Source: Escherichia coli (GTDB lineage Bacteria; Pseudomonadota; Gammaproteobacteria; Enterobacterales; Enterobacteriaceae). Taken from it: a stretch of DNA of 64,000 bases. A program made the position numbers and the translations under genes. Below the pieces are notes generated by a model, which was not told the origin of the DNA, made no database searches, and saw only the letters and a list, made by a program, of their open reading frames with translations. Location: NCBI RefSeq assembly GCF_001677475.2, contig NZ_CP015229.1; one strand, 5' to 3'. Below are positions 20,731-59,747 of the stretch, one piece after another; the stretch's first letter is position 1, and each line of letters begins with the position of its first letter.

Positions 20731-20809
20731 TGATGTGATGCCCGGTCGCTCCGGCTATCGGGCCTGAACAAGCAAGAGTGGTTAGCCGGATAAGCAATGT
20801 TATCCGGCT
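20731..20809. repeat. REP-like inverted repeats between fucI and fucK
   Basis: gcccggtcgctccggctatcgggc and perfect palindrome agccggataa-gcaatg-ttatccggct. Confidence 0.55.
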
Positions 20810-20826
20810 ATATTGCAGGAGCGATT

Positions 20827-22245
20827 ATGAAACAAGAAGTTATCCTGGTACTCGACTGTGGCGCGACCAATGTCAGGGCCATCGCGGTTAATCGGCAGGG
20901 AAAAATTGTTGCCCGCGCCTCAACGCCTAATGCCAGCGATATCGCGATGGAAAACAACACCTGGCACCAGTGGTCTTTAGACGCCATTTTGCAACGCTTT
21001 GCTGATTGCTGTCGGCAAATCAATAGTGAACTGACTGATTGCCACATCCGCGGTATCGCCGTCACCACCTTTGGTGTGGATGGCGCTCTGGTAGATAAGC
21101 AAGGCAATCTGCTCTATCCGATCATTAGCTGGAAATGTCCGCGAACAGCAGCGGTAATGGACAATATTGAACGGTTGATCTCCGCACAGCAGTTGCAGAC
21201 TATTTCTGGTGTCGGAGCCTTTAGTTTCAATACGTTATATAAATTGGTGTGGTTGAAAGAAAATTATCCACAACTGCTGGAACGCGCGCACGCCTGGCTC
21301 TTTATTTCGTCGCTGATTAACCACCGTTTAACCGGCGAATTCACTACTGATATCACGATGGCCGGAACCAGCCAGATGCTGGATATCCAGCAACGCGATT
21401 TCAGTCCGCAAATTTTACACGCCACCGGTATTCCACGCCGACTCTTCCCTCGTCTGGTGGAAGCGGGTGAACAGATTGGTACGTTACAGAACAGCGCCGC
21501 AGCAATGCTCGGCTTACCCGTTGGCATACCGGTGATTTCCGCAGGTCACGATACCCAGTTCGCCCTTTTTGGCGCTGGTGCCGAACAAAATGAACCCGTG
21601 CTCTCTTCCGGTACATGGGAAATTTTAATGGTCCGTAGCGCCCAGGTTGATACTTCGCTGTTAAGTCAGTACGCCGGTTCTACCTGCGAGCTGGATAGCC
21701 AGGCAGGGTTGTATAACCCAGGTATGCAATGGCTGGCATCCGGCGTGCTGGAATGGGTGAGAAAACTGTTCTGGACGGCTGAAACTCCCTGGCAAATATT
21801 GATTGAAGAAGCTCGCCTGATCGCGCCTGGCGCAGATGGAGTGAAAATGCAGTGTGATTTATTGTCGTGCCAGAACGCTGGCTGGCAAGGAGTGACGCTT
21901 AATACCACGCGGGGGCATTTCTATCGCGCGGCGCTGGAAGGGTTAACCACGCAATTACAGCGCAATCTACAGATGCTGGAAAAAATCGGGCACTTTAAAG
22001 CCTCTGAATTATTGTTAGTCGGCGGAGGAAGTCGCAACACATTGTGGAATCAGATTAAAGCCAATATGCTTGATATTCCGGTAAAAGTTCTCGACGATGC
22101 CGAAACGACCGTCGCAGGAGCTGCGCTGTTCGGTTGGTATGGCGTAGGGGAATTTAACAGCCCGGAAGAAGCCCGCGCGCAGATTCATTATCAGTACCGT
22201 TATTTCTACCCGCAAACTGAACCTGAATTTATAGAGGAAGTGTGA
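20827..22245 (+). CDS. fucK: L-fuculokinase, 472 aa
   Basis: ORF 20797..22245; FGGY sugar kinase; start placed at ATG 20827 after gcaggag RBS (longer ORF start 20797 also possible). Confidence 0.9.
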
Positions 22246-22246
22246 A

Positions 22247-22660
22247 ATGCTGAAAACAATTTCGCCGTTAATTTCTCCCGAACTATTGAAAGTGCTGGCA
22301 GAGATGGGGCATGGAGATGAAATTATTTTTTCCGATGCTCACTTTCCCGCCCATTCGATGGGACCGCAGGTGATCCGCGCTGATGGCCTGTTGGTGAGCG
22401 ACTTGCTCCAGGCGATTATCCCGTTATTTGAGCTGGACAGTTATGCACCACCGCTGGTGATGATGGCGGCGGTAGAAGGTGACACTCTCGATCCTGAAGT
22501 AGAACGACGTTATCGTAATGCGCTTTCACTACAAGCCCCCTGTCCTGACATCATCCGCATCAATCGTTTTGCGTTTTATGAACGGGCGCAAAAAGCCTTT
22601 GCGATCGTTATCACAGGCGAACGAGCGAAGTACGGGAATATTCTTTTAAAAAAGGGGTAA
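22247..22660 (+). CDS. fucU: L-fucose mutarotase (RbsD/FucU family), 137 aa as encoded here
   Basis: ORF 22247..22660; matches FucU; ends ...ILLKKG* at an A6 tract, 3 codons short of the 140-aa form I recall. Confidence 0.88.
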
Positions 22661-22725
22661 CACCGTAATCTCATACCGGTACGCCCGCATGACGCGGGCG
22701 GTTATCGAATGATGGGGTGAAAAAT

Positions 22726-23457
22726 ATGAAAGCGGCACGCCAGCAAGCGATAGTCGACCTGCTGCTGAACCATACCAGCCTGACCACGGAAGCTCTCTCT
22801 GAACAGCTAAAGGTCAGTAAAGAAACCATTCGTCGCGATCTCAATGAATTACAGACGCAGGGTAAAATTCTGCGCAATCATGGGCGCGCTAAATATATCC
22901 ACCGTCAAAATCAAGACAGTGGCGATCCCTTTCACATCCGGCTGAAAAGCCATTATGCGCATAAAGCAGATATCGCGCGCGAGGCGCTCGCGTGGATTGA
23001 AGAAGGGATGGTAATAGCCTTAGACGCAAGTTCAACCTGCTGGTATCTGGCACGCCAGTTGCCTGACATCAACATCCAGGTCTTCACCAATAGCCATCCG
23101 ATTTGCCATGAACTCGGTAAACGCGAACGCATTCAACTGATCAGTTCCGGCGGCACACTTGAGCGCAAATATGGTTGTTACGTCAATCCCTCTCTGATTT
23201 CCCAGCTTAAATCGCTGGAAATCGATCTGTTTATTTTTTCTTGTGAAGGGATCGATAGCAGCGGCGCACTGTGGGACTCCAATGCGATCAACGCTGATTA
23301 CAAATCAATGCTATTAAAACGTGCCGCGCAATCGTTGTTATTGATTGATAAAAGTAAATTTAATCGTTCAGGGGAAGCCCGCATCGGGCATCTGGATGAG
23401 GTCACGCACATTATTTCTGATGAGCGCCAGGTTGCGGCTTCTTTGGTAACAGCCTGA
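22726..23457 (+). CDS. fucR: L-fucose operon activator (DeoR family), 243 aa
   Basis: ORF 22717..23457; DeoR-type HTH N-terminus; start at MKAARQQ (22726). Confidence 0.9.
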   Translation: MKAARQQAIVDLLLNHTSLTTEALSEQLKVSKETIRRDLNELQTQGKILRNHGRAKYIHRQNQDSGDPFHIRLKSHYAHKADIAREALAWIEEGMVIALDASSTCWYLARQLPDINIQVFTNSHPICHELGKRERIQLISSGGTLERKYGCYVNPSLISQLKSLEIDLFIFSCEGIDSSGALWDSNAINADYKSMLLKRAAQSLLLIDKSKFNRSGEARIGHLDEVTHIISDERQVAASLVTA

Positions 23458-23500
23458 CGGAAAGGATAGCAGGCCGGAGACGACGCCCCGGCCTTGCCTG

Positions 23501-24601
23501 TTATCGCTCGTCGCGACGACCACCCACAGCAGCCCAGATACGGCGGACGTGCACCGTCACTTCTTCGCGATCGTGATACAACTGCCGCGCCTGAATCTGA
23601 GCATTTATGCCATGTTCATCAAGCTGTGCCTGAATATACGCCAGATTGTGTGACACTTCTTCATAGCGTTTTTTCATCGGCAGTTTGAGGTTGAAAATGG
23701 TTTCACGGCACCAGCCATTAACCAGCCACTGCGCCATCAATGCCGCAACTTTCGCCGGTTTTTCAACCATATCGCATACCATCCAGGAGATATTGCTGCG
23801 TGTCGGACGGAATTTGAAACCGTCTTCCCGCAGCCACGTCACCTGCCCGGTATCCATCAGACTTTGCGCCATCGGGCCGTTGTCGACGGAATAAACCCAC
23901 ATGTTGCGCTTTACCAGTTGGTAGGTCCAGCCGCCTGGGCAAGCGCCCAAATCCACCGCCCACATCCCGTTCGCCAGGCGTTCATCCCACTCATCCACAG
24001 GAATAAACACATGAAATGCCTCTTCCAGTTTGAGCGTGGAACGACTCGGCGCATCTGCCGGAAATTTCAGGCGCGGAATGCCCATATAGAACGGCGAATT
24101 ATTGTTGCTGTATGAGTAACCGGTATAGCAGCAACCTGGGGCAATAAAGAATACATGCACAACCGGACGCTTCGGCGTTTCATAGTTCGCCAGCACCCCG
24201 GCATCGCGCAAGGCAGCGCGTAGCGGCACGGTGAATTTACGGCAGAATTTCAGCAACTCTTTGCTTTCGTTGGTATCGGCAACTTCAACACGCAGTTCAC
24301 CGCCCTTCTCTACTACACCCTGTAACATGCCGACAATGGGGGTAATACGATCTTCTGGCGGCAAATGCTGCAGGAGTTCCCCCACCACAAACCACTGGCG
24401 GGCAAAAATTAATGAACTGAACGGCAGCTCACGGATTAACTTATCGCCATCATCAGGTTGATAACATTCATAAATGACATAACCCGCATTCTCTTTCACG
24501 CGGGCAAAACCGAAAATTTCCCGCTGGCCGGCTTTATCGGTAATTTCTGCGGCGCACTCTTTTTCAAAGCCCGGACGGCACAGCAATACAACCTTATTCA
24601 T
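23501..24601 (-). CDS. rlmM: 23S rRNA 2'-O-ribose C2498 methyltransferase, 366 aa
   Basis: ORF 23501..24601; SAM-dependent MTase; matches E. coli RlmM length/context. Confidence 0.9.
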
Positions 24602-24989
24602 GACTTACGCCCTTGCGCTTTAAACGGATAGCACCAACTAACATTAACGCCCAGCCCGCAAGGAAGCTCACGCCGCCAACCGGAGTGACAAACGCCCACA
24701 AACGCAGATGGGACAGTGCCAGGCAATAAAGGCTGCCGCTGAACAGCACCGTGCCTAACGCGAGGAAAACGCTACTCCAGTAAAACCAGATACTGATGCG
24801 ACGCTGCATTGCCACCGCCAGACCTAAGATCGCCAGCGTATGAAACGCCTGGTATTCGAGACCGGTCTGGATCCAGCCCATCTCAACGGCCCCCATGGTT
24901 TTACTTAACACATGCGCGCCAAAAGCGCCCAGTGCCACAAAAATGAAGCCGCTAATGGCGGCGAAAATCAGCATAAAACGGCTGGTCAT
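24594..24989 (-). CDS. ygdD: DUF423 inner-membrane protein, 131 aa
   Basis: ORF 24594..24989; four hydrophobic segments; 8-nt overlap with rlmM start. Confidence 0.85.
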
Positions 24990-25007
24990 GGTCGTACCCT
25001 ACGTAAA

Positions 25008-25925
25008 TTATTGTTCATAACGAAAGCGGAATTTTTCTTGTTCAGCAGCGGCTTTCGCCAGGATCCATTGACGAAAGGCGGCTATTTTACCCAGTTCTGC
25101 CTGGCTGTCATGACAAACCAGATAAAAAGCGTTTTTACTGACCAGAACATCATTAAACGGGCAAACAAGACGTCCGGCCTCGATTTCAGATTGCGCCATC
25201 ACGTTATTTGCCAGCGCCACTCCCTGCCCGTGGATAGCCGCTTGCAGCACCATGGCGCTATGGCTAAAAATTGGCCCTTGCTGAACGTTGATATGATTTA
25301 ACCCCAATTGGCGAGTATATGTCTGCCAGTCACGGCGTGACGCATCATGTAATAACGTATGTTTAGCCAGATCTTCCGGGGTCTTCAAGGGTTTTTCGCC
25401 AGTCAGCAGTAGCGGCGAACACACCGGCAATAAATATTCGGCGTACAGTTTTTCCACCCGTAGCCCCGGCCAGTTGCCCCGACCATAAAATATCGCCACA
25501 TCAACATCATCCGCCAGCTTATCTTCCTGACGATCAACCGCCTGGATTCGAACGTCAATTCCCGGATAAGCTGAATTAAAGCTGGAAAGTCGCGGAACCA
25601 ACCAATGAATGGCGAAACTGGGGAGTAAACTGACCGTCAACGCCCCCTTGGCGCTACGGGCCTGGAGTTTACGCGTCGCTTCGGTTAATTGCGAAAATAT
25701 CTCTTTGATATCGAGGAAATAGCTTTGACCTTCCTCGGTCAGCAGGAGTGAACGATTACGGCGGCGGAACAGTTTTAGCCCCAGAAAATCCTCAAGAGAC
25801 TTGATTTGATGACTTACTGCGGCCTGGGTCACAAAAAGCTCTTCTGCTGCGCGAGTGAAACTTAAATGGCGTGCTGCGGCATCAAAAACTCGTAAGGCAT
25901 TTAGCGGTGGTAATCGTTTAGACAT
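25008..25925 (-). CDS. gcvA: LysR-family glycine-cleavage transcriptional regulator, 305 aa
   Basis: ORF 25008..25925; LysR HTH (LSFTRAAEELFVTQAAVSHQI); divergent from gcvB. Confidence 0.93.
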   Translation of the reverse strand: MSKRLPPLNALRVFDAAARHLSFTRAAEELFVTQAAVSHQIKSLEDFLGLKLFRRRNRSLLLTEEGQSYFLDIKEIFSQLTEATRKLQARSAKGALTVSLLPSFAIHWLVPRLSSFNSAYPGIDVRIQAVDRQEDKLADDVDVAIFYGRGNWPGLRVEKLYAEYLLPVCSPLLLTGEKPLKTPEDLAKHTLLHDASRRDWQTYTRQLGLNHINVQQGPIFSHSAMVLQAAIHGQGVALANNVMAQSEIEAGRLVCPFNDVLVSKNAFYLVCHDSQAELGKIAAFRQWILAKAAAEQEKFRFRYEQ

Positions 25926-26053
25926 GGCTTTTAAACTTTGATGTTAAATGAATTTAACAATTAGATCACACTGTGTAACCTATTAGTTTTTTTAATCTGA
26001 GCCATTATAAATTGTCCGTTGAGCTTCTACCAGCAAATACCTATAGTGGCGGC

Positions 26054-26259
26054 ACTTCCTGAGCCGGAACGAAAAGTTTTATCGGAATGCGTGTTCTGGT
26101 GAACTTTTGGCTTACGGTTGTGATGTTGTGTTGTTGTGTTTGCAATTGGTCTGCGATTCAGACCATGGTAGCAAAGCTACCTTTTTTCACTTCCTGTACA
26201 TTTACCCTGTCTGTCCATAGTGATTAATGTAGCACCGCCTAATTGCGGTGCTTTTTTTT
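26054..26259 (+). ncRNA. gcvB: GcvB small RNA, about 206 nt
   Basis: ACTTCCTGAGCCGGAACGAAAAGTTTTATCGG 5' end, G/U-rich tgttgtgttgttgtgtttg region, terminal hairpin gcaccgcc-taatt-gcggtgc plus T8. Confidence 0.9.
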
Positions 26260-26275
26260 ACCTTGCGATCGCGAA

Positions 26276-26503
26276 TTACTGATCCAGTTCGACCATCTCT
26301 TTCACGTCGGTACGGTTGATCTGCTGTTTGTTGCCATTAGCGTCTTTATACGAAATCATACCGGTATCGTTATCAGTCTGTGGTTTGCCGTCAGAGACGA
26401 TGGTACGTCCGTCATTGGTGTGCATCACATAGTTCGAACCGGAACAGGCGCTCAGGGCAAAAGTCAGCATACAGGCAGAAATAATTGCGGCAGTCTTTTT
26501 CAT
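26276..26503 (-). CDS. ygdI: Small lipoprotein (DUF903), 75 aa
   Basis: ORF 26276..26506; lipobox LSAC; paralog of YgdR in this window. Confidence 0.88.
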
Positions 26504-26694
26504 CATCTTCTCCTTAAAGCGATTAATAAATCTTAATAGTATTGATTAACAGGCTAAAATTAACGCCTAACACTATTCAGCATATGTTACTGACGCGGCT
26601 TCGCCAGGATATCCAGATAATTCTGATGGTTAGCACCCTCCTTGTATCAAAGTGAATTTTGCGTCACGATCGGTGCATCAAGCCGAGGAGTACC

Positions 26695-27900
26695 ATGAAC
26701 GTTTTTAATCCCGCGCAGTTTCGCGCCCAGTTTCCCGCGCTACAGGATGCGGGCGTCTATCTCGACAGCGCCGCGACCGCGCTTAAACCTGAAGCCGTGG
26801 TTGAAGCCACCCGACAGTTTTATAGCCTGAGCGCCGGAAACGTCCATCGCAGCCAGTTTGCCGAAGCCCAACGCCTGACCGCGCGTTATGAAGCTGCGCG
26901 GGAAAAAGTGGCACAATTACTGAATGCATCAGATGACAAAAATATCGTCTGGACGCGCGGCACCACTGAATCCATCAACATGGTGGCACAATGCTATGCG
27001 CGTCCGCGTCTGCAACCGGGCGATGAGATTATTGTCAGCGTGGCAGAACACCACGCCAACCTCGTCCCCTGGCTGATGGTCGCCCAACAAACCGGAGCCA
27101 AAGTGGTGAAGTTGCCGCTTAATGCGCAGCGTCTGCCAGATGTCGATTTGTTACCAGAGCTGATTACTCCCCGTAGCCGGATTCTGGCGTTGGGCCAGAT
27201 GTCGAACGTCACTGGCGGCTGCCCGGATCTGGCGCGAGCGATTACCTTTGCCCATTCAGCCGGGATGGTGGTGATGGTTGATGGTGCTCAGGGGGCAGTG
27301 CATTTCCCCGCGGATGTTCAGCAACTGGATATTGATTTCTATGCTTTTTCAGGTCACAAACTGTATGGCCCGACAGGGATAGGCGTGCTGTATGGCAAAT
27401 CAGAACTGCTGGAAGCGATGTCGCCCTGGCTGGGCGGCGGCAAAATGGTTCACGAAGTGAGTTTTGACGGCTTCACTACTCAATCTGCGCCGTGGAAACT
27501 GGAAGCTGGAACGCCAAATGTCGCTGGTGTCATAGGATTAAGCGCGGCGCTGGAATGGCTGGCAGATTACGATATCAACCAGGCCGAAAGCTGGAGCCGT
27601 AGCTTAGCAACGCTGGCGGAAGATGCGCTGGCGAAACGTCCCGGCTTTCGTTCATTCCGCTGCCAGGATTCCAGCCTGCTGGCCTTTGATTTTGCTGGCG
27701 TTCATCACAGCGATATGGTGACGCTGCTGGCGGAGTACGGTATTGCCCTGCGGGCCGGGCAGCATTGCGCTCAGCCGCTACTGGCAGAATTAGGCGTAAC
27801 CGGCACACTGCGCGCCTCTTTTGCGCCATATAATACAAAGAGTGATGTGGATGCGCTGGTGAATGCCGTTGACCGCGCGCTGGAATTATTGGTGGATTAA
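26695..27900 (+). CDS. csdA: Cysteine sulfinate desulfinase / cysteine desulfurase (class V aminotransferase), 401 aa
   Basis: ORF 26659..27900 (TTG); start set at ATG 26695 after gaggag RBS; PLP-binding SGHK motif. Confidence 0.92.
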
Positions 27901-28343
27901 TGACGAACCCGCAATTCGCCGGACATCCGTTCGGCACAACCGTAACCGCAGAAACGTTACGCAATACCTTCGCACCGTTGACGCAATGGGAAGATAAATA
28001 TCGCCAGTTGATCATGCTGGGGAAACAGCTTCCGGCTTTGCCAGACGAGTTAAAAGCGCAGGCTAAAGAGATTGCCGGATGCGAAAACCGCGTCTGGCTG
28101 GGATATACCGTGGCTGAAAACGGTAAAATGCACTTCTTTGGCGACAGCGAAGGGCGCATTGTGCGCGGCCTGCTGGCGGTGTTGTTGACTGCCGTTGAGG
28201 GGAAAACCGCCACCGAGTTGCAGGCACAGTCACCGCTGGCATTGTTTGATGAGCTGGGATTACGTGCGCAACTTAGCGCCTCACGCAGCCAGGGGTTGAA
28301 TGCGTTAAGCGAGGCGATTATCGCTGCGGCGAAGCAGGTTTAA
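27900..28343 (+). CDS. csdE: Sulfur acceptor protein CsdE (SufE-like), 147 aa
   Basis: ORF 27900..28343; ATGA overlap with csdA stop. Confidence 0.92.
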
Positions 28344-28351
28344 GCACAGAA

Positions 28352-28388
28352 CCGGGTCGGATAAGACGTTTGCGTCGCATCCGACCTG
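28352..28388. repeat. REP-like palindromic unit between csdE and tcdA
   Basis: ggtcggataagacgtttgcgtcgcatccgacc. Confidence 0.6.
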
Positions 28389-28393
28389 ATTGT

Positions 28394-29200
28394 TTACCCC
28401 TGACGCGCCGCTTTCGCCATCATCTTCTTCAGCGCATGAGAAACCGCAACAAAACCAAAGGTGGCGGTCACCATCGTCGCGGCACCAAAGCCAGATGCAC
28501 AATCCATCCGCTTTGGCCCTTCTGCCGTGGCTTTCATCGCACACACCGTACCGTCTGACTGCGGATACACCAATGCTTCGGTAGAGAACACGCAATCCAC
28601 ACCGAGCTTACCTTTACTGTTTTTCACTACGCCAAAATCGCTTTTCAGGCGCTCGCGCAACTTCGCCGCCAACGGGTCCTGAATCGTTTTCGCCAGATCG
28701 GTAACCTGAATCTGCGTCGGGTCAATCTGCCCACCAGCGCCACCAGTCGTGACCAGCGGGATTTTATTGCGCCGACAATAAGCAATCAGCGCCGCTTTGG
28801 GCCGTACACTATCAATAGCATCAATCACGTACGAATAACCGGCATTCATATATTGCGCTACGTTATCCGGCGTCACGAAGTCATCCACCACCGTTACACG
28901 GCACTCCGGGTTAATCTGGCGAATACGCTCCGCCATTACTTCCGCTTTTGCCAGCCCGACGTTATCGCGCAGAGCGTGAATTTGCCGATTGGTATTGGTG
29001 ACGCACACATCATCCATATCGATAAGCGTGATTGCGCCAATCCCCGTGCGCGCTAGCGCTTCCGCCGCCCAGGAACCGACACCGCCAATACCCACCACAC
29101 AAATATGCGCGTCAGCAAACAGTTGCAATGCTTTTTCACCATACAGACGCGCTGTGCCACCAAAACGCTGACGCCATGCATCACTAATTACCACAGACAT
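28394..29200 (-). CDS. tcdA: tRNA threonylcarbamoyladenosine dehydratase (ThiF/MoeB E1-like), 268 aa
   Basis: ORF 28394..29200; GxGxxG nucleotide-binding motif (VVGIGGVGSWAAEALAR). Confidence 0.9.
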   Translation of the reverse strand: MSVVISDAWRQRFGGTARLYGEKALQLFADAHICVVGIGGVGSWAAEALARTGIGAITLIDMDDVCVTNTNRQIHALRDNVGLAKAEVMAERIRQINPECRVTVVDDFVTPDNVAQYMNAGYSYVIDAIDSVRPKAALIAYCRRNKIPLVTTGGAGGQIDPTQIQVTDLAKTIQDPLAAKLRERLKSDFGVVKNSKGKLGVDCVFSTEALVYPQSDGTVCAMKATAEGPKRMDCASGFGAATMVTATFGFVAVSHALKKMMAKAARQG

Positions 29201-47537: not shown

Positions 47538-47721
47538 GCCGGCAGTATGGAGCGAGGAGAAAAAAAGACGAGGGCCAGTTTCTATTTCTTCGGCGCATCT
47601 TCCGGACTATTTACGCCGTTGCAGGACGTTGCAAAATTTCGGGAAGGTGTCTCGAAGAATTTAACGGAGGGTAAAAAAAACCGACGCACACTGGCGTCGG
47701 CTCTGGCAGGATGTTTCGTAA

Positions 47722-49548: not shown

Positions 49549-51795
49549 CTATAACCCTCCGCGAATCAGCCCGCCCATGCCGCGACGCTCCATAAAGGCT
49601 GCAACCTGATGGCGAACTTCGGTCGCCAGTTGCGCTTCCAGACTACGCTGCGCAAGATTCTCTGCTTCGGCATAATCAATGCGCCGCAGCAGGTATTTTA
49701 CCCGCGCTACAGAACGTCCGTTCATAGACAGATGGCGATACCCAAGCCCAATGAGGATTGCCACGCACATGGGATCGCCCGCCATTTCACCGCACAAACG
49801 GAGATCGATACCATGTATTTCCGCTTCCCGGGCGATCATCGCCAGAGCTCGTAACATTGCAGGATGAAGGCTGTCATAAATGTTCGCCACCCGGGTATTG
49901 TTGCGATCAACGGCCAGGATGTATTGAGTCAGATCGTTGGTGCCAACAGAGATGAAATCGACCCGCTTTGCCAGATGCGGCAACATAAATACCATTGACG
50001 GCACTTCCAGCATGATGCCGATACGTGGTTTGGGAATTTCGTAACCGATCATCTCCTCGACTTCACGTCCGGCACGTTCAATCAGGCGGCGTGCTTCGTC
50101 AACTTCATCGAGGCTGGTGACCATCGGCAACAGAATATTCAGGTTGCCCGTAGCGGCATTAGCACGCAGCATCGCCCGCACCTGGATCAAGAAGATCTCC
50201 GGCTGATCGAGCGTAATGCGAATCCCACGCCAACCCAGGCATGGATTCTCTTCGCTGATCGGCATGTAAGGCAGCTGCTTATCTGCTCCGACATCCAGCG
50301 TACGTAAGGTGACAGGTTTATCATTGAACATTTGCAGCATCCCCTGATACTGCGCCACCTGTTCTTCTTCCGACGGGAAACCACTTTGCAGCATGAATGG
50401 GATTTCAGTGCGATAAAGACCGATGCCATCAATACGGCTGCCCAGTTTTTCTTCATGTTCCGGGCTTAAACCAGCATTGAGCATGACTTTTATACGCTCA
50501 CCGCTTTTTAACTGCGCGGGTAAATTGACGTCATCTTCCGCCAGACGGCTAAGCTCAATCTCTTCACTAATTAGCCGCTGATATTCTTGCAGCAGTACCG
50601 GCTCCGGATCGACCAGCAATTCACCGCGATAGCCATCAACGATCAGCGTCCTACGATGCAACACTGAAGGTTGAATGTCCGCCCCCATCACCGTAGGAAT
50701 ACCCAGCGCGCGTACCATAATCGCCGCATGGGAGTTGGCCGCACCATCGCGTACGACGACGCCGACTAAGCGATCCTGAGGCAACTCCGCAAGGGTCGTC
50801 GCCGACAATTCATCTGCCACCAGAATGAAACGTTCCGGCCAGGCGTTCGGCCCTTGATTAGCGTCATCAAGATGAAACAGCAATCGCTGACCCAGCGCAC
50901 GTAAATCGCCAGCCCGCTCTTTGAGATAGTTATCGCTTAGCGCGGCAAACTGTTCGGCAAATTTTTCAATGACCGTTTTTACCGCCCATTCTGCCACCGA
51001 GCCTTTATCAACCTCGGCAAACAATTCGCGACGCAGCCGGGTGTCCGAAAGCAGGTGCGAGTAAAGATCGAAAATAGCCGCCGTTTCTTTTTGTGCACCG
51101 GCGGCAAAGCGTTTGCTGTAGCGGCGAAACTCGTTTGCCGCTTCTTCCAGCGCCCCGGTCAGTCGTTCGCGTTCCAGAGCCGGATCCAGCGTTGATGCCT
51201 GATACACCTGTTCCATTAAAGGTAACGTGGCATCCTGCCAGCCTTCGGCAATCGCCACACCAGGTGCTGCCGGTAATGCGCGGATTCGCGTCTGGCGATA
51301 TTGCCCAAACAGTGCAGTCAACTGCGACTGAGAAAGAATAGCTGCCATCTGGGTGGCAAGCGTCACCAGGAAGGATTCTTCACTTTCGTCATACTGGCGC
51401 AACTCTCGTTGCTGTACCACCAGTACACCAAGCAACTGGCGACGTTGAATAATTGGTACGCCTAAAAACGCGCGGAAACGTTCTTCTTTTACGGAGGGGA
51501 TGTATTTGAAGCTGGGGTGCTTTTGCGCATCTGCAAGGTTTATCGGTTCCGCCAGCCTGCCAACCAGGCCGACGATCCCTTCATCAAACGCGAGCGTTAC
51601 AGTGCGACCGCGTGGTTTTTTCAGCCCCCGGGTCGCCATCAGGTAGTAACAACGTCGATCATGATCGGCCAGGTAGACCGAACAGACCTCGGTATCCATC
51701 GCAAGACAGATGTCGGTAACCAGAATATTTAACGCCTCATTCAGGCGTGGTGCGCTGGCTACCTTTTCGACTATTTCGCGCAGGCGAGTGAGCAT
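49549..51795 (-). CDS. ptsP: PEP-protein phosphotransferase enzyme I-Ntr (GAF + EI domains), 748 aa
   Basis: ORF 49549..51795; N-terminal GAF domain, C-terminal enzyme I PEP-utilizing domain. Confidence 0.94.
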   Translation of the reverse strand: MLTRLREIVEKVASAPRLNEALNILVTDICLAMDTEVCSVYLADHDRRCYYLMATRGLKKPRGRTVTLAFDEGIVGLVGRLAEPINLADAQKHPSFKYIPSVKEERFRAFLGVPIIQRRQLLGVLVVQQRELRQYDESEESFLVTLATQMAAILSQSQLTALFGQYRQTRIRALPAAPGVAIAEGWQDATLPLMEQVYQASTLDPALERERLTGALEEAANEFRRYSKRFAAGAQKETAAIFDLYSHLLSDTRLRRELFAEVDKGSVAEWAVKTVIEKFAEQFAALSDNYLKERAGDLRALGQRLLFHLDDANQGPNAWPERFILVADELSATTLAELPQDRLVGVVVRDGAANSHAAIMVRALGIPTVMGADIQPSVLHRRTLIVDGYRGELLVDPEPVLLQEYQRLISEEIELSRLAEDDVNLPAQLKSGERIKVMLNAGLSPEHEEKLGSRIDGIGLYRTEIPFMLQSGFPSEEEQVAQYQGMLQMFNDKPVTLRTLDVGADKQLPYMPISEENPCLGWRGIRITLDQPEIFLIQVRAMLRANAATGNLNILLPMVTSLDEVDEARRLIERAGREVEEMIGYEIPKPRIGIMLEVPSMVFMLPHLAKRVDFISVGTNDLTQYILAVDRNNTRVANIYDSLHPAMLRALAMIAREAEIHGIDLRLCGEMAGDPMCVAILIGLGYRHLSMNGRSVARVKYLLRRIDYAEAENLAQRSLEAQLATEVRHQVAAFMERRGMGGLIRGGL

Positions 51796-51807
51796 AATTG
51801 GCGTGAC

Positions 51808-52338
51808 TTAACCTCTTTTACGTCGATAAGCAGATGCGTTTTGTGGTTTTGGCGTATTTTCCTGCAGTGACATCACCACACTCGCGAACTCTTTCATTAC
51901 CCTACGGTAGACATCACGTTTAAATGACACCACCTGTCTGACCGGATACCAGTAACTTACCCATCGCCAGCCGTCAAACTCTGGTGTACTGCTGGTTTGC
52001 ATATTGATTTCTGCATCGCCGCTCACCAGCTGCAAGAGAAACCATTTTTGTTTTTGGCCGATACAAACCGGCTTCGTGTCCCAACGCACCAAACGTTTCG
52101 GTAATTTGTAGCGCAACCAGTTACGCGTTGAAGCAAGGATTCGAACGTCTTTGCGGCTTAATCCTACTTCTTCAAACAATTCACGGTACATCGCCTGCTC
52201 TGCGGATTCTCCGGGGTTGATTCCGCCTTGCGGAAATTGCCAGGAGTGCTGACCAAATCGCCGGGCCCACATTACCTGCCCCTGGCGATTACAAATCACG
52301 ATACCTACGTTTGGGCGGTAGCCATCGTCATCAATCAC
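51808..52338 (-). CDS. rppH: RNA pyrophosphohydrolase (Nudix), 176 aa
   Basis: ORF 51808..52338; Nudix box [22 protein letters not shown]. Confidence 0.94.
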
Positions 52339-52479
52339 CGGACTACCTCAAAATAAAGCTTTATATACGAATGATTGTTTCATACTCCAGGAAGACGGTA
52401 AACCACTCTCTGCAGGGCATTACACACTAATAACAATTGAATAACTCACAGTTATGTGCAGAGTTATAAACAGAAGAAG

Positions 52480-52850
52480 GGGTGGATAGCCGTTTTTATT
52501 CACCTTTTCTGTGGATAGAGTTGTGAAGAACTACGGAATTACTACGGGAAAACCCGGAGCATTCTGAATAAGCCCGATATAGACATTTTAAAATATTCAT
52601 TATCAGTCAATGCATTACATGTAATTTGAGTAATAAAAAAGAGTAATTCGTGACCCAGGTCACACCTCTCATTTACGGGTTGGCGAAAGATCAACCAATG
52701 CGGTATTTATCCACAGAATGTGCCACTAAGTTAAGCACTGAGCCACTAAAAACTGGAGTTTCGTCGCACGTCAAGGCTGTAAATGGAAACAGTAGTGGAG
52801 GTTTTTCACAGTTATCCCAGCTTTCTGTGGATAACATGGTGTAAGATCCT
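52480..52850. promoter_or_regulatory. DnaA-box cluster in rppH-mutH intergenic region, consistent with DARS2 (DnaA-reactivating sequence 2); boundaries approximate
   Basis: Perfect DnaA boxes ttatccaca at 52708..52716 (fwd) and tgtggataa at 52826..52834 (rev); 1-mismatch box tgtggatag 52510..52518; weaker box-like 9-mers nearby; DARS2 is reported to lie between ygpD(rppH) and mutH. Confidence 0.6.
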
Positions 52851-53022
52851 GTTTATTTTCAGTGACCAGATTTGGAAAACCCGTTGCAGTGTTGCGCAAC
52901 TCGATTACCGACAATCTAAAAAGCAATATAAATCAGAGAATTGAACAACGCATGTGGAAAAAGTTACACTGCGAATATTCGGCACAGAAATGCTGTTTGT
53001 TTTTTAACCAAGGTATCGTGAC

Positions 53023-53712
53023 ATGTCCCAACCTCGCCCACTGCTCTCTCCTCCCGAAACTGAAGAACAATTGTTAGCGCAAGCACAACAACTTTCTGGT
53101 TATACATTGGGAGAACTGGCGGCACTTGCTGGGCTGGTGACGCCGGAGAATTTAAAACGCGATAAGGGCTGGATTGGCGTGTTACTGGAGATCTGGCTAG
53201 GTGCCAGCGCAGGGAGTAAACCTGAGCAAGATTTTGCTGCTCTGGGCGTGGAACTTAAAACTATCCCTGTGGATAGTCTTGGTCGTCCGCTGGAAACAAC
53301 ATTCGTTTGTGTTGCCCCGTTAACGGGTAATAGCGGGGTGACCTGGGAAACCAGCCACGTGCGCCACAAGCTCAAACGCGTGCTGTGGATACCGGTTGAA
53401 GGCGAGCGCTGCATCCCGCTGGCGCAGCGTCGCGTAGGATCACCGTTGCTGTGGAGCCCGAATGAAGAGGAAGACCGGCAGCTACGCGAAGACTGGGAAG
53501 AATTAATGGATATGATTGTTCTCGGTCAGGTTGAGCGGATTACCGCTCGTCACGGGGAATATTTACAGATACGACCGAAAGCAGCGAATGCGAAAGCGCT
53601 TACCGAAGCCATTGGTGCCCGGGGCGAACGGATTCTGACGCTGCCACGCGGCTTTTATTTGAAGAAGAATTTCACCAGTGCACTACTGGCCCGTCATTTT
53701 CTGATCCAGTAG
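53023..53712 (+). CDS. mutH: DNA mismatch repair endonuclease MutH, 229 aa
   Basis: ORF 53023..53712; matches E. coli MutH N-terminus [20 protein letters not shown]. Confidence 0.95.
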
Positions 53713-53780
53713 CCATCGCTTTGACCTGCCGCTTTCCGGGCATATAATTACCGCTTCATTTTTTTGGCAGGGCTTTTTAG

Positions 53781-54494
53781 ATGTTATTTGCATGGATAAC
53801 CGATCCTAACGCCTGGCTTGCGCTCGGTACGCTGACGCTGCTGGAGATCGTTCTTGGGATCGACAATATTATTTTCCTTTCTCTGGTGGTGGCAAAGCTC
53901 CCCACAGCACAACGTGCTCATGCGCGCCGTCTGGGGTTGGCGGGAGCCATGGTTATGCGTCTGGCGCTGCTGGCATCAATCGCCTGGGTTACGCGCCTGA
54001 CGAATCCGCTTTTTACAATATTCAGTCAGGAAATTTCCGCCCGTGATTTGATTCTGCTTCTGGGGGGCTTGTTCCTTATCTGGAAAGCCAGCAAGGAAAT
54101 CCACGAATCCATTGAAGGTGAAGAAGAAGGGCTGAAAACACGCGTTTCATCATTCCTCGGCGCTATCGTGCAGATTATGCTGCTGGATATTATCTTCAGC
54201 CTCGACTCGGTGATTACCGCTGTGGGTCTGTCAGATCACCTGTTTATTATGATGGCCGCCGTGGTGATTGCCGTAGGCGTGATGATGTTCGCCGCGCGCT
54301 CGATTGGTGATTTTGTCGAGCGCCATCCTTCGGTAAAAATGCTGGCGCTCTCTTTCCTGATTCTGGTCGGCTTTACCCTGATTCTGGAAAGTTTCGACAT
54401 CCACGTACCGAAAGGTTACATCTACTTCGCGATGTTCTTCTCTATTGCGGTTGAAAGCCTCAACCTGATTCGCAACAAAAAGAATCCGCTCTGA
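53781..54494 (+). CDS. ygdQ: TerC-family inner-membrane protein, 237 aa
   Basis: ORF 53781..54494; multi-TM, TerC-like. Confidence 0.88.
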
Positions 54495-54631
54495 TACTCC
54501 GTACGCTCTCCTGCGGGAGGGCGTACTCACTCCTGTTACCCTCACAGTTTAAGATTTTCCTGCTTTCAAGATATATAACGTCGGTTTATAAACAGACTAT
54601 TATCATAGGTGGGCCAAATGAGGATAACCGG

Positions 54632-54850
54632 ATGAAAAAATGGGCAGTAATAATTTCTGCAGTCGGACTGGCGTTTGCTGTTTCCGGGTGTTCCAGTGAT
54701 TACGTCATGGCGACCAAAGATGGCCGTATGATTTTGACCGATGGAAAACCTGAAATTGATGATGATACCGGGCTGGTGAGTTATCACGATCAGCAAGGTA
54801 ACGCGATGCAAATTAACCGTGATGATGTTTCGCAAATTATTGAACGTTAA
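54632..54850 (+). CDS. ygdR: Small lipoprotein (DUF903), 72 aa
   Basis: ORF 54632..54850; lipobox VSGC; clear paralog of YgdI (shared SDYVM..DGR..DGKP..DDTG..Q.NRDDV pattern). Confidence 0.88.
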
Positions 54851-54957
54851 CAAATAAGGTCAGCATCCGGCTGGCCTTAAGATTTTTCTCTTTCCCTTTT
54901 CCCTTCCCTCTGCCATTTTTATATTCCTTATGTTGTGATTATAAAAAGGAAACGGCT

Positions 54958-55998
54958 ATGCAATATCACCGTATACCCCACAGTTCGCTGGAAGTCAGCA
55001 CGCTGGGGCTTGGCACGATGACGTTTGGTGAACAGAACAGCGAAGCCGACGCCCACGCACAACTCGACTATGCCGTCGCTCAGGGCATTAACCTTATCGA
55101 CGTTGCCGAAATGTACCCAGTACCTCCGCGCCCCGAAACGCAAGGGTTAACCGAAACCTACGTCGGCAACTGGCTGGCGAAACATGGCAGCCGCGAAAAG
55201 TTAATTATCGCCTCCAAAGTGAGCGGACCGTCGCGCAATAATGACAAGGGCATCCGCCCGGATCAGGCGCTGGATCGGAAGAATATCCGCGAAGCGTTGC
55301 ATGACAGCCTCAAGCGTCTGCAGACTGATTACCTCGATCTTTATCAGGTGCACTGGCCGCAGCGCCCAACCAACTGCTTTGGCAAACTCGGTTATAGCTG
55401 GACGGATTCTGCGCCTGCAGTTTCGCTGCTAGATACGCTGGACGCACTGGCAGAGTACCAACGCGCGGGAAAAATTCGTTATATCGGCGTGTCGAACGAA
55501 ACTGCATTTGGCGTAATGCGCTACCTGCATCTGGCGGACAAACACGATCTGCCGCGTATTGTCACCATTCAGAACCCTTACAGTCTGTTAAACCGCAGTT
55601 TTGAAGTAGGTCTGGCAGAAGTCAGCCAGTATGAAGGGGTCGAACTGCTGGCCTATTCGTGCCTGGGTTTCGGCACGCTGACCGGGAAATATCTCAACGG
55701 TGCAAAACCCGCTGGCGCACGTAATACGCTCTTTAGTCGGTTCACCCGCTATAGCGGTGAGCAAACGCAAAAAGCCGTCGCGGCGTATGTTGATATAGCC
55801 AGACGTCATGGCCTGGATCCTGCACAGATGGCGCTCGCTTTTGTACGCCGTCAACCGTTTGTTGCCAGCACTCTGCTAGGCGCAACCACGATGGAGCAGC
55901 TGAAAACTAACGTCGAAAGTTTGCATCTGGAGTTAAGCGAAGACGTATTAGCTGAAATTGAAGCGGTACATCAGGTTTATACTTATCCGGCACCATAA
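54958..55998 (+). CDS. tas: Aldo-keto reductase Tas, 346 aa
   Basis: ORF 54958..55998; AKR family. Confidence 0.92.
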   Translation: MQYHRIPHSSLEVSTLGLGTMTFGEQNSEADAHAQLDYAVAQGINLIDVAEMYPVPPRPETQGLTETYVGNWLAKHGSREKLIIASKVSGPSRNNDKGIRPDQALDRKNIREALHDSLKRLQTDYLDLYQVHWPQRPTNCFGKLGYSWTDSAPAVSLLDTLDALAEYQRAGKIRYIGVSNETAFGVMRYLHLADKHDLPRIVTIQNPYSLLNRSFEVGLAEVSQYEGVELLAYSCLGFGTLTGKYLNGAKPAGARNTLFSRFTRYSGEQTQKAVAAYVDIARRHGLDPAQMALAFVRRQPFVASTLLGATTMEQLKTNVESLHLELSEDVLAEIEAVHQVYTYPAP

Positions 55999-56000
55999 GA

Positions 56001-56026
56001 TTAACGCCGGTTAAAACCGGCGTTAA
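56001..56026. terminator. Perfect 10-bp stem hairpin between convergent tas and lplT (probable bidirectional terminator)
   Basis: ttaacgccgg-ttaaaa-ccggcgttaa. Confidence 0.55.
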
Positions 56027-56029
56027 ATA

Positions 56030-59396
<3,367 letters not shown>

Positions 59397-59664: not shown

Positions 59665-59747
59665 AAAAAAAAACCTGCGCATCTGCGCAGGCTGGTGTAA
59701 TTCATGTGCTCAACCCGAAGTTGACTTCACCTATCAATACCTCTGGG
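59665..59747 (-). ncRNA. omrB: OmrB (RygB) small RNA
   Basis: Minus strand reads CCCAGAGGTATTGATAGGTGAAGTCAACTTCGGGTTGAGCACATGAATTACACCAGCCTGCGCAGATGCGCAGGTTTTTTTTT; shares 5' and 3' ends with omrA. Confidence 0.9.

Follow-up and report, generated by a model that had tools for sequence, protein, structure and literature searches.

The problem posed by the 3' end of fucU

Does the fucU gene in the 64,000-nt stretch of E. coli DNA analysed here (henceforth the window) truly encode a shortened L-fucose mutarotase, or was one base of a homopolymer lost on the way from the chromosome to the database? The initial annotation of the window had described a 137-aa product ending in ILLKKG, with a stop after a run of six A residues, and had left open whether this reflected a strain-specific indel or a homopolymer error. 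The description is exact. The features at the end of the gene are the following:

22247..22660, + strand: fucU (L-fucose mutarotase, RbsD/FucU family), 137 codons plus stop, from the list of open reading frames.
22648..22653, + strand: A6 homopolymer, site of a 1-bp deletion, from the gap relative to K-12 at 22647/22648 and from population counts.
22658..22660, + strand: new TAA stop in the shifted frame, right after Gly137, from the sequence and the reading frame.
22666..22668, + strand: ancestral fucU TAA stop, now out of frame (-1 frame), from the alignment to K-12.
22726..23457, + strand: fucR (L-fucose operon activator), intact, 243 aa.

From 22640 to 22668 the window reads attctttt-aaaaaa-gggg-taa-caccgtaa, such that the protein ends in YGNILLKKG, three codons short of the 140-aa norm, and the ancestral TAA lies 8 nt downstream of the new stop. 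The initial annotation had put the norm at 140 aa ending in KKGVTP, and had named a reference FucU of 137 aa ending at KKG as the outcome that would undo its reading. The norm was stated correctly, and the reference is 140 aa: fucU of K-12 MG1655 (b2804, NP_417284.1) spans 423 nt and encodes 140 aa, and the solved structure of E. coli L-fucose mutarotase (PDB 2WCV) likewise has 140 aa and ends in KKGVTP. Strain ATCC 11775 reads ttaaaaaaaggggtaacaccgtaa at the fucU 3' end, corresponding to a run of seven A residues (A7). An 81-mer carrying A7 finds an exact match in 5,380 of 5,423 complete E. coli genomes (99.2%), while the corresponding A6 80-mer of the window matches exactly in four of the 5,423 (APEC IMT5155, ETEC1734, ETEC1706, and Z1324SEC0014). 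Thus, the window fucU differs from the E. coli norm and the 137-aa form is a rare state. Judged from these genome counts, from K-12, ATCC 11775, and 2WCV, and from the close relatives considered below, A7 is the ancestral state.

The surroundings of the gene are conventional. Upstream of fucU, fucK ends at 22245, and downstream lies fucR (22726-23457), an arrangement common to all E. coli records examined. One base separates the fucK stop (22245) from the fucU start (22247). The fucK reading frame can be extended upstream by 10 codons (window 20797-20826) to give 482 aa, whereas the RefSeq start at 20827 gives 472 aa. With the new stop, the spacer between fucU and fucR measures 65 nt, versus 57 nt before the deletion. 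It contains one structured element:

22678..22706, + strand: GC-rich stem-loop in the fucU-fucR spacer, core cgcccgc-atgac-gcgggcg, from an RNA fold.

This stem-loop has no T tail, and the deletion leaves both it and fucR untouched. A promoter and terminator scan of 22500-22800 called no site, and no terminator or promoter consensus in that interval is affected. Folding of 22630-22730 yielded -35.6 kcal/mol (z = -4.1) with two predicted hairpins. The second of these (22631-22667) has the arms UAUUCUUUU and AAAGGGGUA and encloses part of the A run.

The window comes from a rare lineage and carries few indels

We placed the window among sequenced E. coli by DNA identity. Throughout its 64 kb it keeps the gene order of K-12 with perfect colinearity, at an identity of about 98.0-98.5%, and it is about equidistant from K-12 (98.0%) and B2 strains (98.4%). 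The closest of the 5,426 complete RefSeq E. coli genomes compared reach 98.5% at 10-35 kb (10001-35000), 98.5% at 22.7-29.2 kb (22700-29200), and 98.9% at 50-58 kb (50001-58000). By these identities, the window is a member of a rare E. coli lineage for which RefSeq has no close complete genome. There are draft assemblies that are 99.7-100% identical to the window, and the GenBank proteins ANO90609 and ANO90612, encoded on one contig of 5,498,453 bp, carry the FucK and RlmM alleles of the window. Hence, a complete genome of the lineage exists outside RefSeq.

If the missing A were a basecalling or assembly fault, similar faults might be expected elsewhere in the same assembly. Along the 64 kb, comparison with K-12 shows eight single-base indels. 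Seven lie between genes (window positions 1314, 5542, 11037, 30935, 31095, 47673, and 59665), and the eighth is the fucU A run. The comparison therefore revealed no further frame-breaking homopolymer indel and no other indel in a coding sequence, in line with the impression recorded in the initial annotation that the other genes have their expected lengths. Random homopolymer errors would put most indels inside genes, and the pattern along the window, as read from the alignment, is different. Nearly all indels being intergenic, and the sole coding one lying in the last four codons of fucU, the distribution points to real variation filtered by selection. Several of the intergenic indels fall in A/T runs, including A8 versus A7 at 47673 and A9 versus A8 at 59665, beside omrB.

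The A6 tract is probably derived within a sub-clade

To read the tract in close relatives, we used exact matches to neighbouring proteins with lineage-specific alleles (RlmM and FucK) as lineage probes. An exact look-up of FucI was uninformative, since this allele is very common, and all its matches lie beside a 140-aa FucU in DNA of about 98.5% identity. The RlmM allele led to a draft assembly, GCA_043014985.2, whose contig ABVVWG020000002.1 carries A6 and matches the window at 100% identity along 21.1-21.4 kb; it is the sole lineage assembly besides the window in which A6 was read as DNA, and it could be the window's own source. By contrast, the relative L026 (GCA_019142465.1) has A7 and differs from the window by two SNPs plus the fucU indel in 17.3 kb. 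The relatives L027, L028, L029, and L036 also have A7 and are 99.7-99.8% identical to the window, which sets the range for these A7 relatives, L026 included, at 99.7-99.98%.

The FucK allele gave a broader count. With a flank of 100 nt, fucU is the sole neighbouring gene in the look-up, so contigs encoding 137-aa and 140-aa products separate. The gene index has about 56 blocks with the window's FucK allele. Among the 25 contigs read that carry it, FucU has 137 aa in 13 and 140 aa in 12; beyond the draft read as DNA, A6 in the remaining 12 is deduced from the FucU length listed in that index, and some of the 13 may share isolates. Wider flanks pool places encoding 137 aa with places encoding 140 aa, and the '15 similar places' returned for RlmM are accordingly not countable as A6. 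The tract thus differs by a single unit from the ancestral state preserved in close relatives, and A6 recurs in other assemblies of the same clade. The presence of A7 in the close relatives, along with the 13 to 12 split under one FucK allele, argues that A6 is derived, recent, and common to a sub-clade.

Two further observations concern the structure of these relatives. In L026 (3122-4066, corresponding to window position ~30821 in the metZWV tRNA-Met cluster), similarity to the window ends inside the tRNA-fMet array beside mltA, and past the array the contig runs into rimP-nusA-infB, genes that neighbour metY in K-12. The junction is suggestive of an inversion or rearrangement via recombination between initiator-tRNA genes. 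In the relatives L029, L036, and L008, a cluster of ABC-transporter and FGGY-kinase genes replaces fucP upstream of fucI.

On the comparative sequence evidence, we consider it highly probable that the change from A7 to A6 in fucU is a genuine, heritable, clade-specific one-base deletion. Most likely, one A was lost through slippage during replication of this mononucleotide run near the 3' end of fucU, and the A6 form became fixed in a sub-clade of this rare lineage. The frameshift leads directly into a TAA, giving a 137-aa FucU that lacks only V138-T139-P140, while the motifs of the catalytic core (GHGD and YGN) and the remainder of the fuc operon are intact.

The same allele recurs elsewhere, in part as an artefact

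The 137-aa FucU is already known: it is catalogued in UniProt and in RefSeq, there as WP_000920839.1 under a product name of the form 'MULTISPECIES ... [Enterobacteriaceae]', and public data hold 3,923 index blocks, on at least 1,000 contigs, for a product of this length. WP_000920839.1, present in IMT5155, ETEC1734, and Z1324SEC0014, shares both its protein sequence and its A6 DNA context with the window, yet these genomes are unrelated to the window, with flanks of 98.3-98.4% identity and B2 or K-12-like backgrounds. Since its carriers are unrelated to the window, the allele is homoplasic.

The individual carriers differ in how far they can be trusted. APEC IMT5155 gave the sole 100% match to the window over the fucU region (474 nt), its flanks being only 98.4% identical, and its assembly used 454 reads exclusively, at a depth of about 23x (PMC4232414); its A6 may be a 454 artefact. 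ETEC1734 carries A6 in a sequence 99.97% identical to K-12 over 20 kb, and its neighbouring genes are intact except for a partial sdaC. Z1324SEC0014 also has A6, is 99.5% identical both to K-12 and to ETEC1734, and has intact neighbouring genes. Outside E. coli, a Mangrovibacter FucU (P0106) likewise ends at KKG. Occurrence on the unrelated backgrounds of IMT5155 (B2), ETEC1734, Z1324SEC0014, and Mangrovibacter identifies the fucU A tract as a hot spot, at which true slippage and miscalls yield the same allele. Published work describes a depletion of seven-A runs (AAAAAAA) from E. coli genes in every reading frame, for which a high rate of indel mutation or slippage during transcription is a possible cause (PMC4066793).

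Chromosome-scale A6 assemblies were also found in which many neighbouring genes are split (L012, L006, and L009-L011); in L012, fucI is broken into six pieces and fucK into three. Assemblies of the L012 type contain pervasive indel errors, and the 137-aa FucU of the databases is therefore a mixture of real alleles and artefacts. A different frameshift variant at the fucU 3' end is represented by P0065, a 156-aa E. coli FucU on a 5.3-Mb contig.

The foremost alternative to an inherited deletion is that the organism truly has A7 and that a basecaller or assembler dropped one A. The great rarity of A6 among complete genomes, with one of the four carriers known from 454 reads alone, speaks for such an error, as do the visibly error-ridden long-read assemblies among the many public 137-aa contigs and the over-representation of the 137-aa product, relative to the common FucI allele, in contigs above 1 Mb and below 5 kb. 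However, an error private to the window does not sit well with the lineage count, in which 13 of the 25 contigs encode 137 aa and 12 encode 140 aa, with a draft that agrees with the window at every base over 21 kb, the A6 run among them, or with coding sequences otherwise free of indels across 64 kb. We therefore judge a sequencing or assembly error unlikely, and of the two possibilities left open by the initial annotation, the identical draft and the lineage contigs favour the real indel.

The deletion removes an invariant tail from an otherwise intact FucU

We asked what an inherited deletion would mean for the protein. Pfam PF05025 recognizes the window FucU with E=1.1e-36 and 126.8 bits (cut-off 25) over profile positions 1-136 of 138; the 140-aa form scores 130.9 bits, the difference accompanying the loss of the last two profile positions. 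By profile, the window protein is thus a member of the RbsD/FucU family, and by identity and position in the fucPIKUR operon, with fucK and fucR as flanks, it is an ortholog of FucU. Residues 1-137 are identical to those of K-12 FucU and 2WCV (137/137), and the window gene shares with its K-12 counterpart the fucPIK-U-R context, the Pfam domain, and the motifs GHGD and YGN. The difference lies in V138, T139, and P140 of K-12 FucU, which are absent from the window protein.

Among enterobacterial FucU proteins these three residues do not vary, and by sequence the end is no loose, variable tail. The stretch K128-P140 is invariant in 30 FucU representatives of 81-91% identity that come from at least about 10 genera, including Citrobacter, Salmonella, Enterobacter, Raoultella, Edwardsiella, and Hafnia. 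The full 12-letter C-terminal motif ends 96 of 122 cluster representatives, whereas the window FucU has it incomplete and stops at KKG. In the first four solved homologues, KG(V/T) is conserved and the chain continues past the glycine. An AlphaFold model of FucU built from the 30-sequence alignment had a pLDDT of 42, too low to support a reading of residues 138-140.

We also computed the product of each tract length around the norm:

A5 tract: 154 aa, with a foreign tail of 19 residues.
A6 tract: 137 aa.
A7 tract: 140 aa, the norm.
A8 tract: 155 aa, with the same foreign tail as A5.

Lengthening the window tract by one A restores the KKGVTP ending followed by a stop, as had been anticipated from the sequence. 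The A6 form is the mildest one-base slip, since A5 or A8 swaps the tail for about 19 unrelated residues.

Invariance of the tail in at least 10 genera argues against V138-T139-P140 being dispensable, and a modest cost to stability or activity from their loss is plausible. On the physiological side, the Keio deletion of fucU in K-12 causes only an extended lag on fucose (PMC10221146). As full loss of fucU only lengthens the fucose lag, selection against the truncation is probably weak. The 137-aa FucU is likely a functional or slightly impaired mutarotase.

A slippery heptamer created by the deletion is a poor candidate for rescue

The deletion has a second consequence for the reading frame, because shortening the run creates an in-frame slippery motif of the -1, dnaX type:

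22648..22654, + strand: A_AAA_AAG heptamer in the zero frame (codons TTA AAA AAG), from the sequence and the reading frame.

This raises the possibility that the deletion corrects itself, with some ribosomes slipping by -1 on the new heptamer and producing a 140-aa FucU beside the 137-aa form. In the zero frame the A6 codons are TTA AAA AAG GGG TAA, whereas the -1 frame reads GGG GTA ACA CCG TAA, that is G, V, T, P, and stop, and from the sequence a -1 slip at 22648-22654 would yield precisely the KKGVTP terminus of the wild type. A_AAA_AAG ranks with the most efficient motifs for -1 shifts in E. coli (PMC4066793), and reportedly more than 1% of ribosomes shift on it in ordinary genes (PMC10861913). 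One-base deletions near AAA-AAA were rescued by -1 frameshifting in constructs for expression in E. coli (PMC1851650).

Against this stands the lack of a stimulatory context. The programmed -1 site of dnaX (PMC4344849, PMC4066793) and the putative one in the window fucU share the heptamer and its reading-frame register. They differ in that the fucU site is not conserved and would add only three residues. No dnaX-like stimulator (upstream SD-like element or close downstream stem-loop) was found near the heptamer: about 24 nt separate it from the start of the GC-rich hairpin, which lies past the stop of the -1 frame, and the other hairpin predicted in the fold of 22630-22730 contains the heptamer itself. 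Hence, of the hallmarks of a dnaX-type site, fucU displays the zero-frame X_XXY_YYZ heptamer and lacks both a stimulatory element and conservation, the heptamer being confined to the A6 allele, derived in a single sub-clade, whereas 99.2% of E. coli have A7. Unstimulated heptamers in a reporter reached at most about 10x a background of 0.055% (PMC4066793), and published rates without stimulators span from a few tenths of a percent in that work to the >1% of PMC10861913.

The yield of rescue in fucU would probably be 1% or less, without evident benefit. A naturally self-rescuing indel, in which both FucU forms are made, could explain why A6, and not another slip at the tract, persists in clades despite the invariance of the tail, an idea that we regard on the sequence as improbable, and we think it very improbable that the self-correcting deletion accounts for the locus. 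Frameshift rescue is, speculatively, a low-probability curiosity rather than a mechanism.

Transcriptional slippage needs longer runs, of about nine or more A/T. The fucU run is shorter, and this route to rescue was set aside.

Slipped-strand polymorphisms of mononucleotide repeats are familiar as phase-variable homopolymer tracts in bacterial genes. The fucU tract resembles such polymorphisms in its one-unit change and its independent recurrence, but differs from phase-variable tracts in being short and in lying at the extreme 3' end, so that the gene is not switched off. That it acts as a contingency switch, toggling between A6 and A7 at high frequency and thereby modulating FucU, is extremely improbable: although both tract states occur in near-identical genomes (L026 and the window) and A6 recurs on several backgrounds, seven bases make a short tract for a contingency locus, the change affects the last three residues alone with no on/off effect, A7 is found exactly in 99.2% of genomes, and the 13 to 12 split fits a single event in one clade.

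What the allele means

The inherited one-base deletion accordingly stays the preferred reading of the fucU 3' end. Its biological weight is small, the allele being probably a near-neutral variant in the last codons of a gene for accessory sugar metabolism. For the lineage, A6 provides a clean marker that parts a sub-clade of these rare E. coli from their nearest relatives. The locus also illustrates that a difference in homopolymer length is not automatically an assembly error, since some assemblies carry A6 as an artefact, whereas in others it is probably real. For the FucU family, the loss of three invariant residues offers a natural test of the role of the tail.
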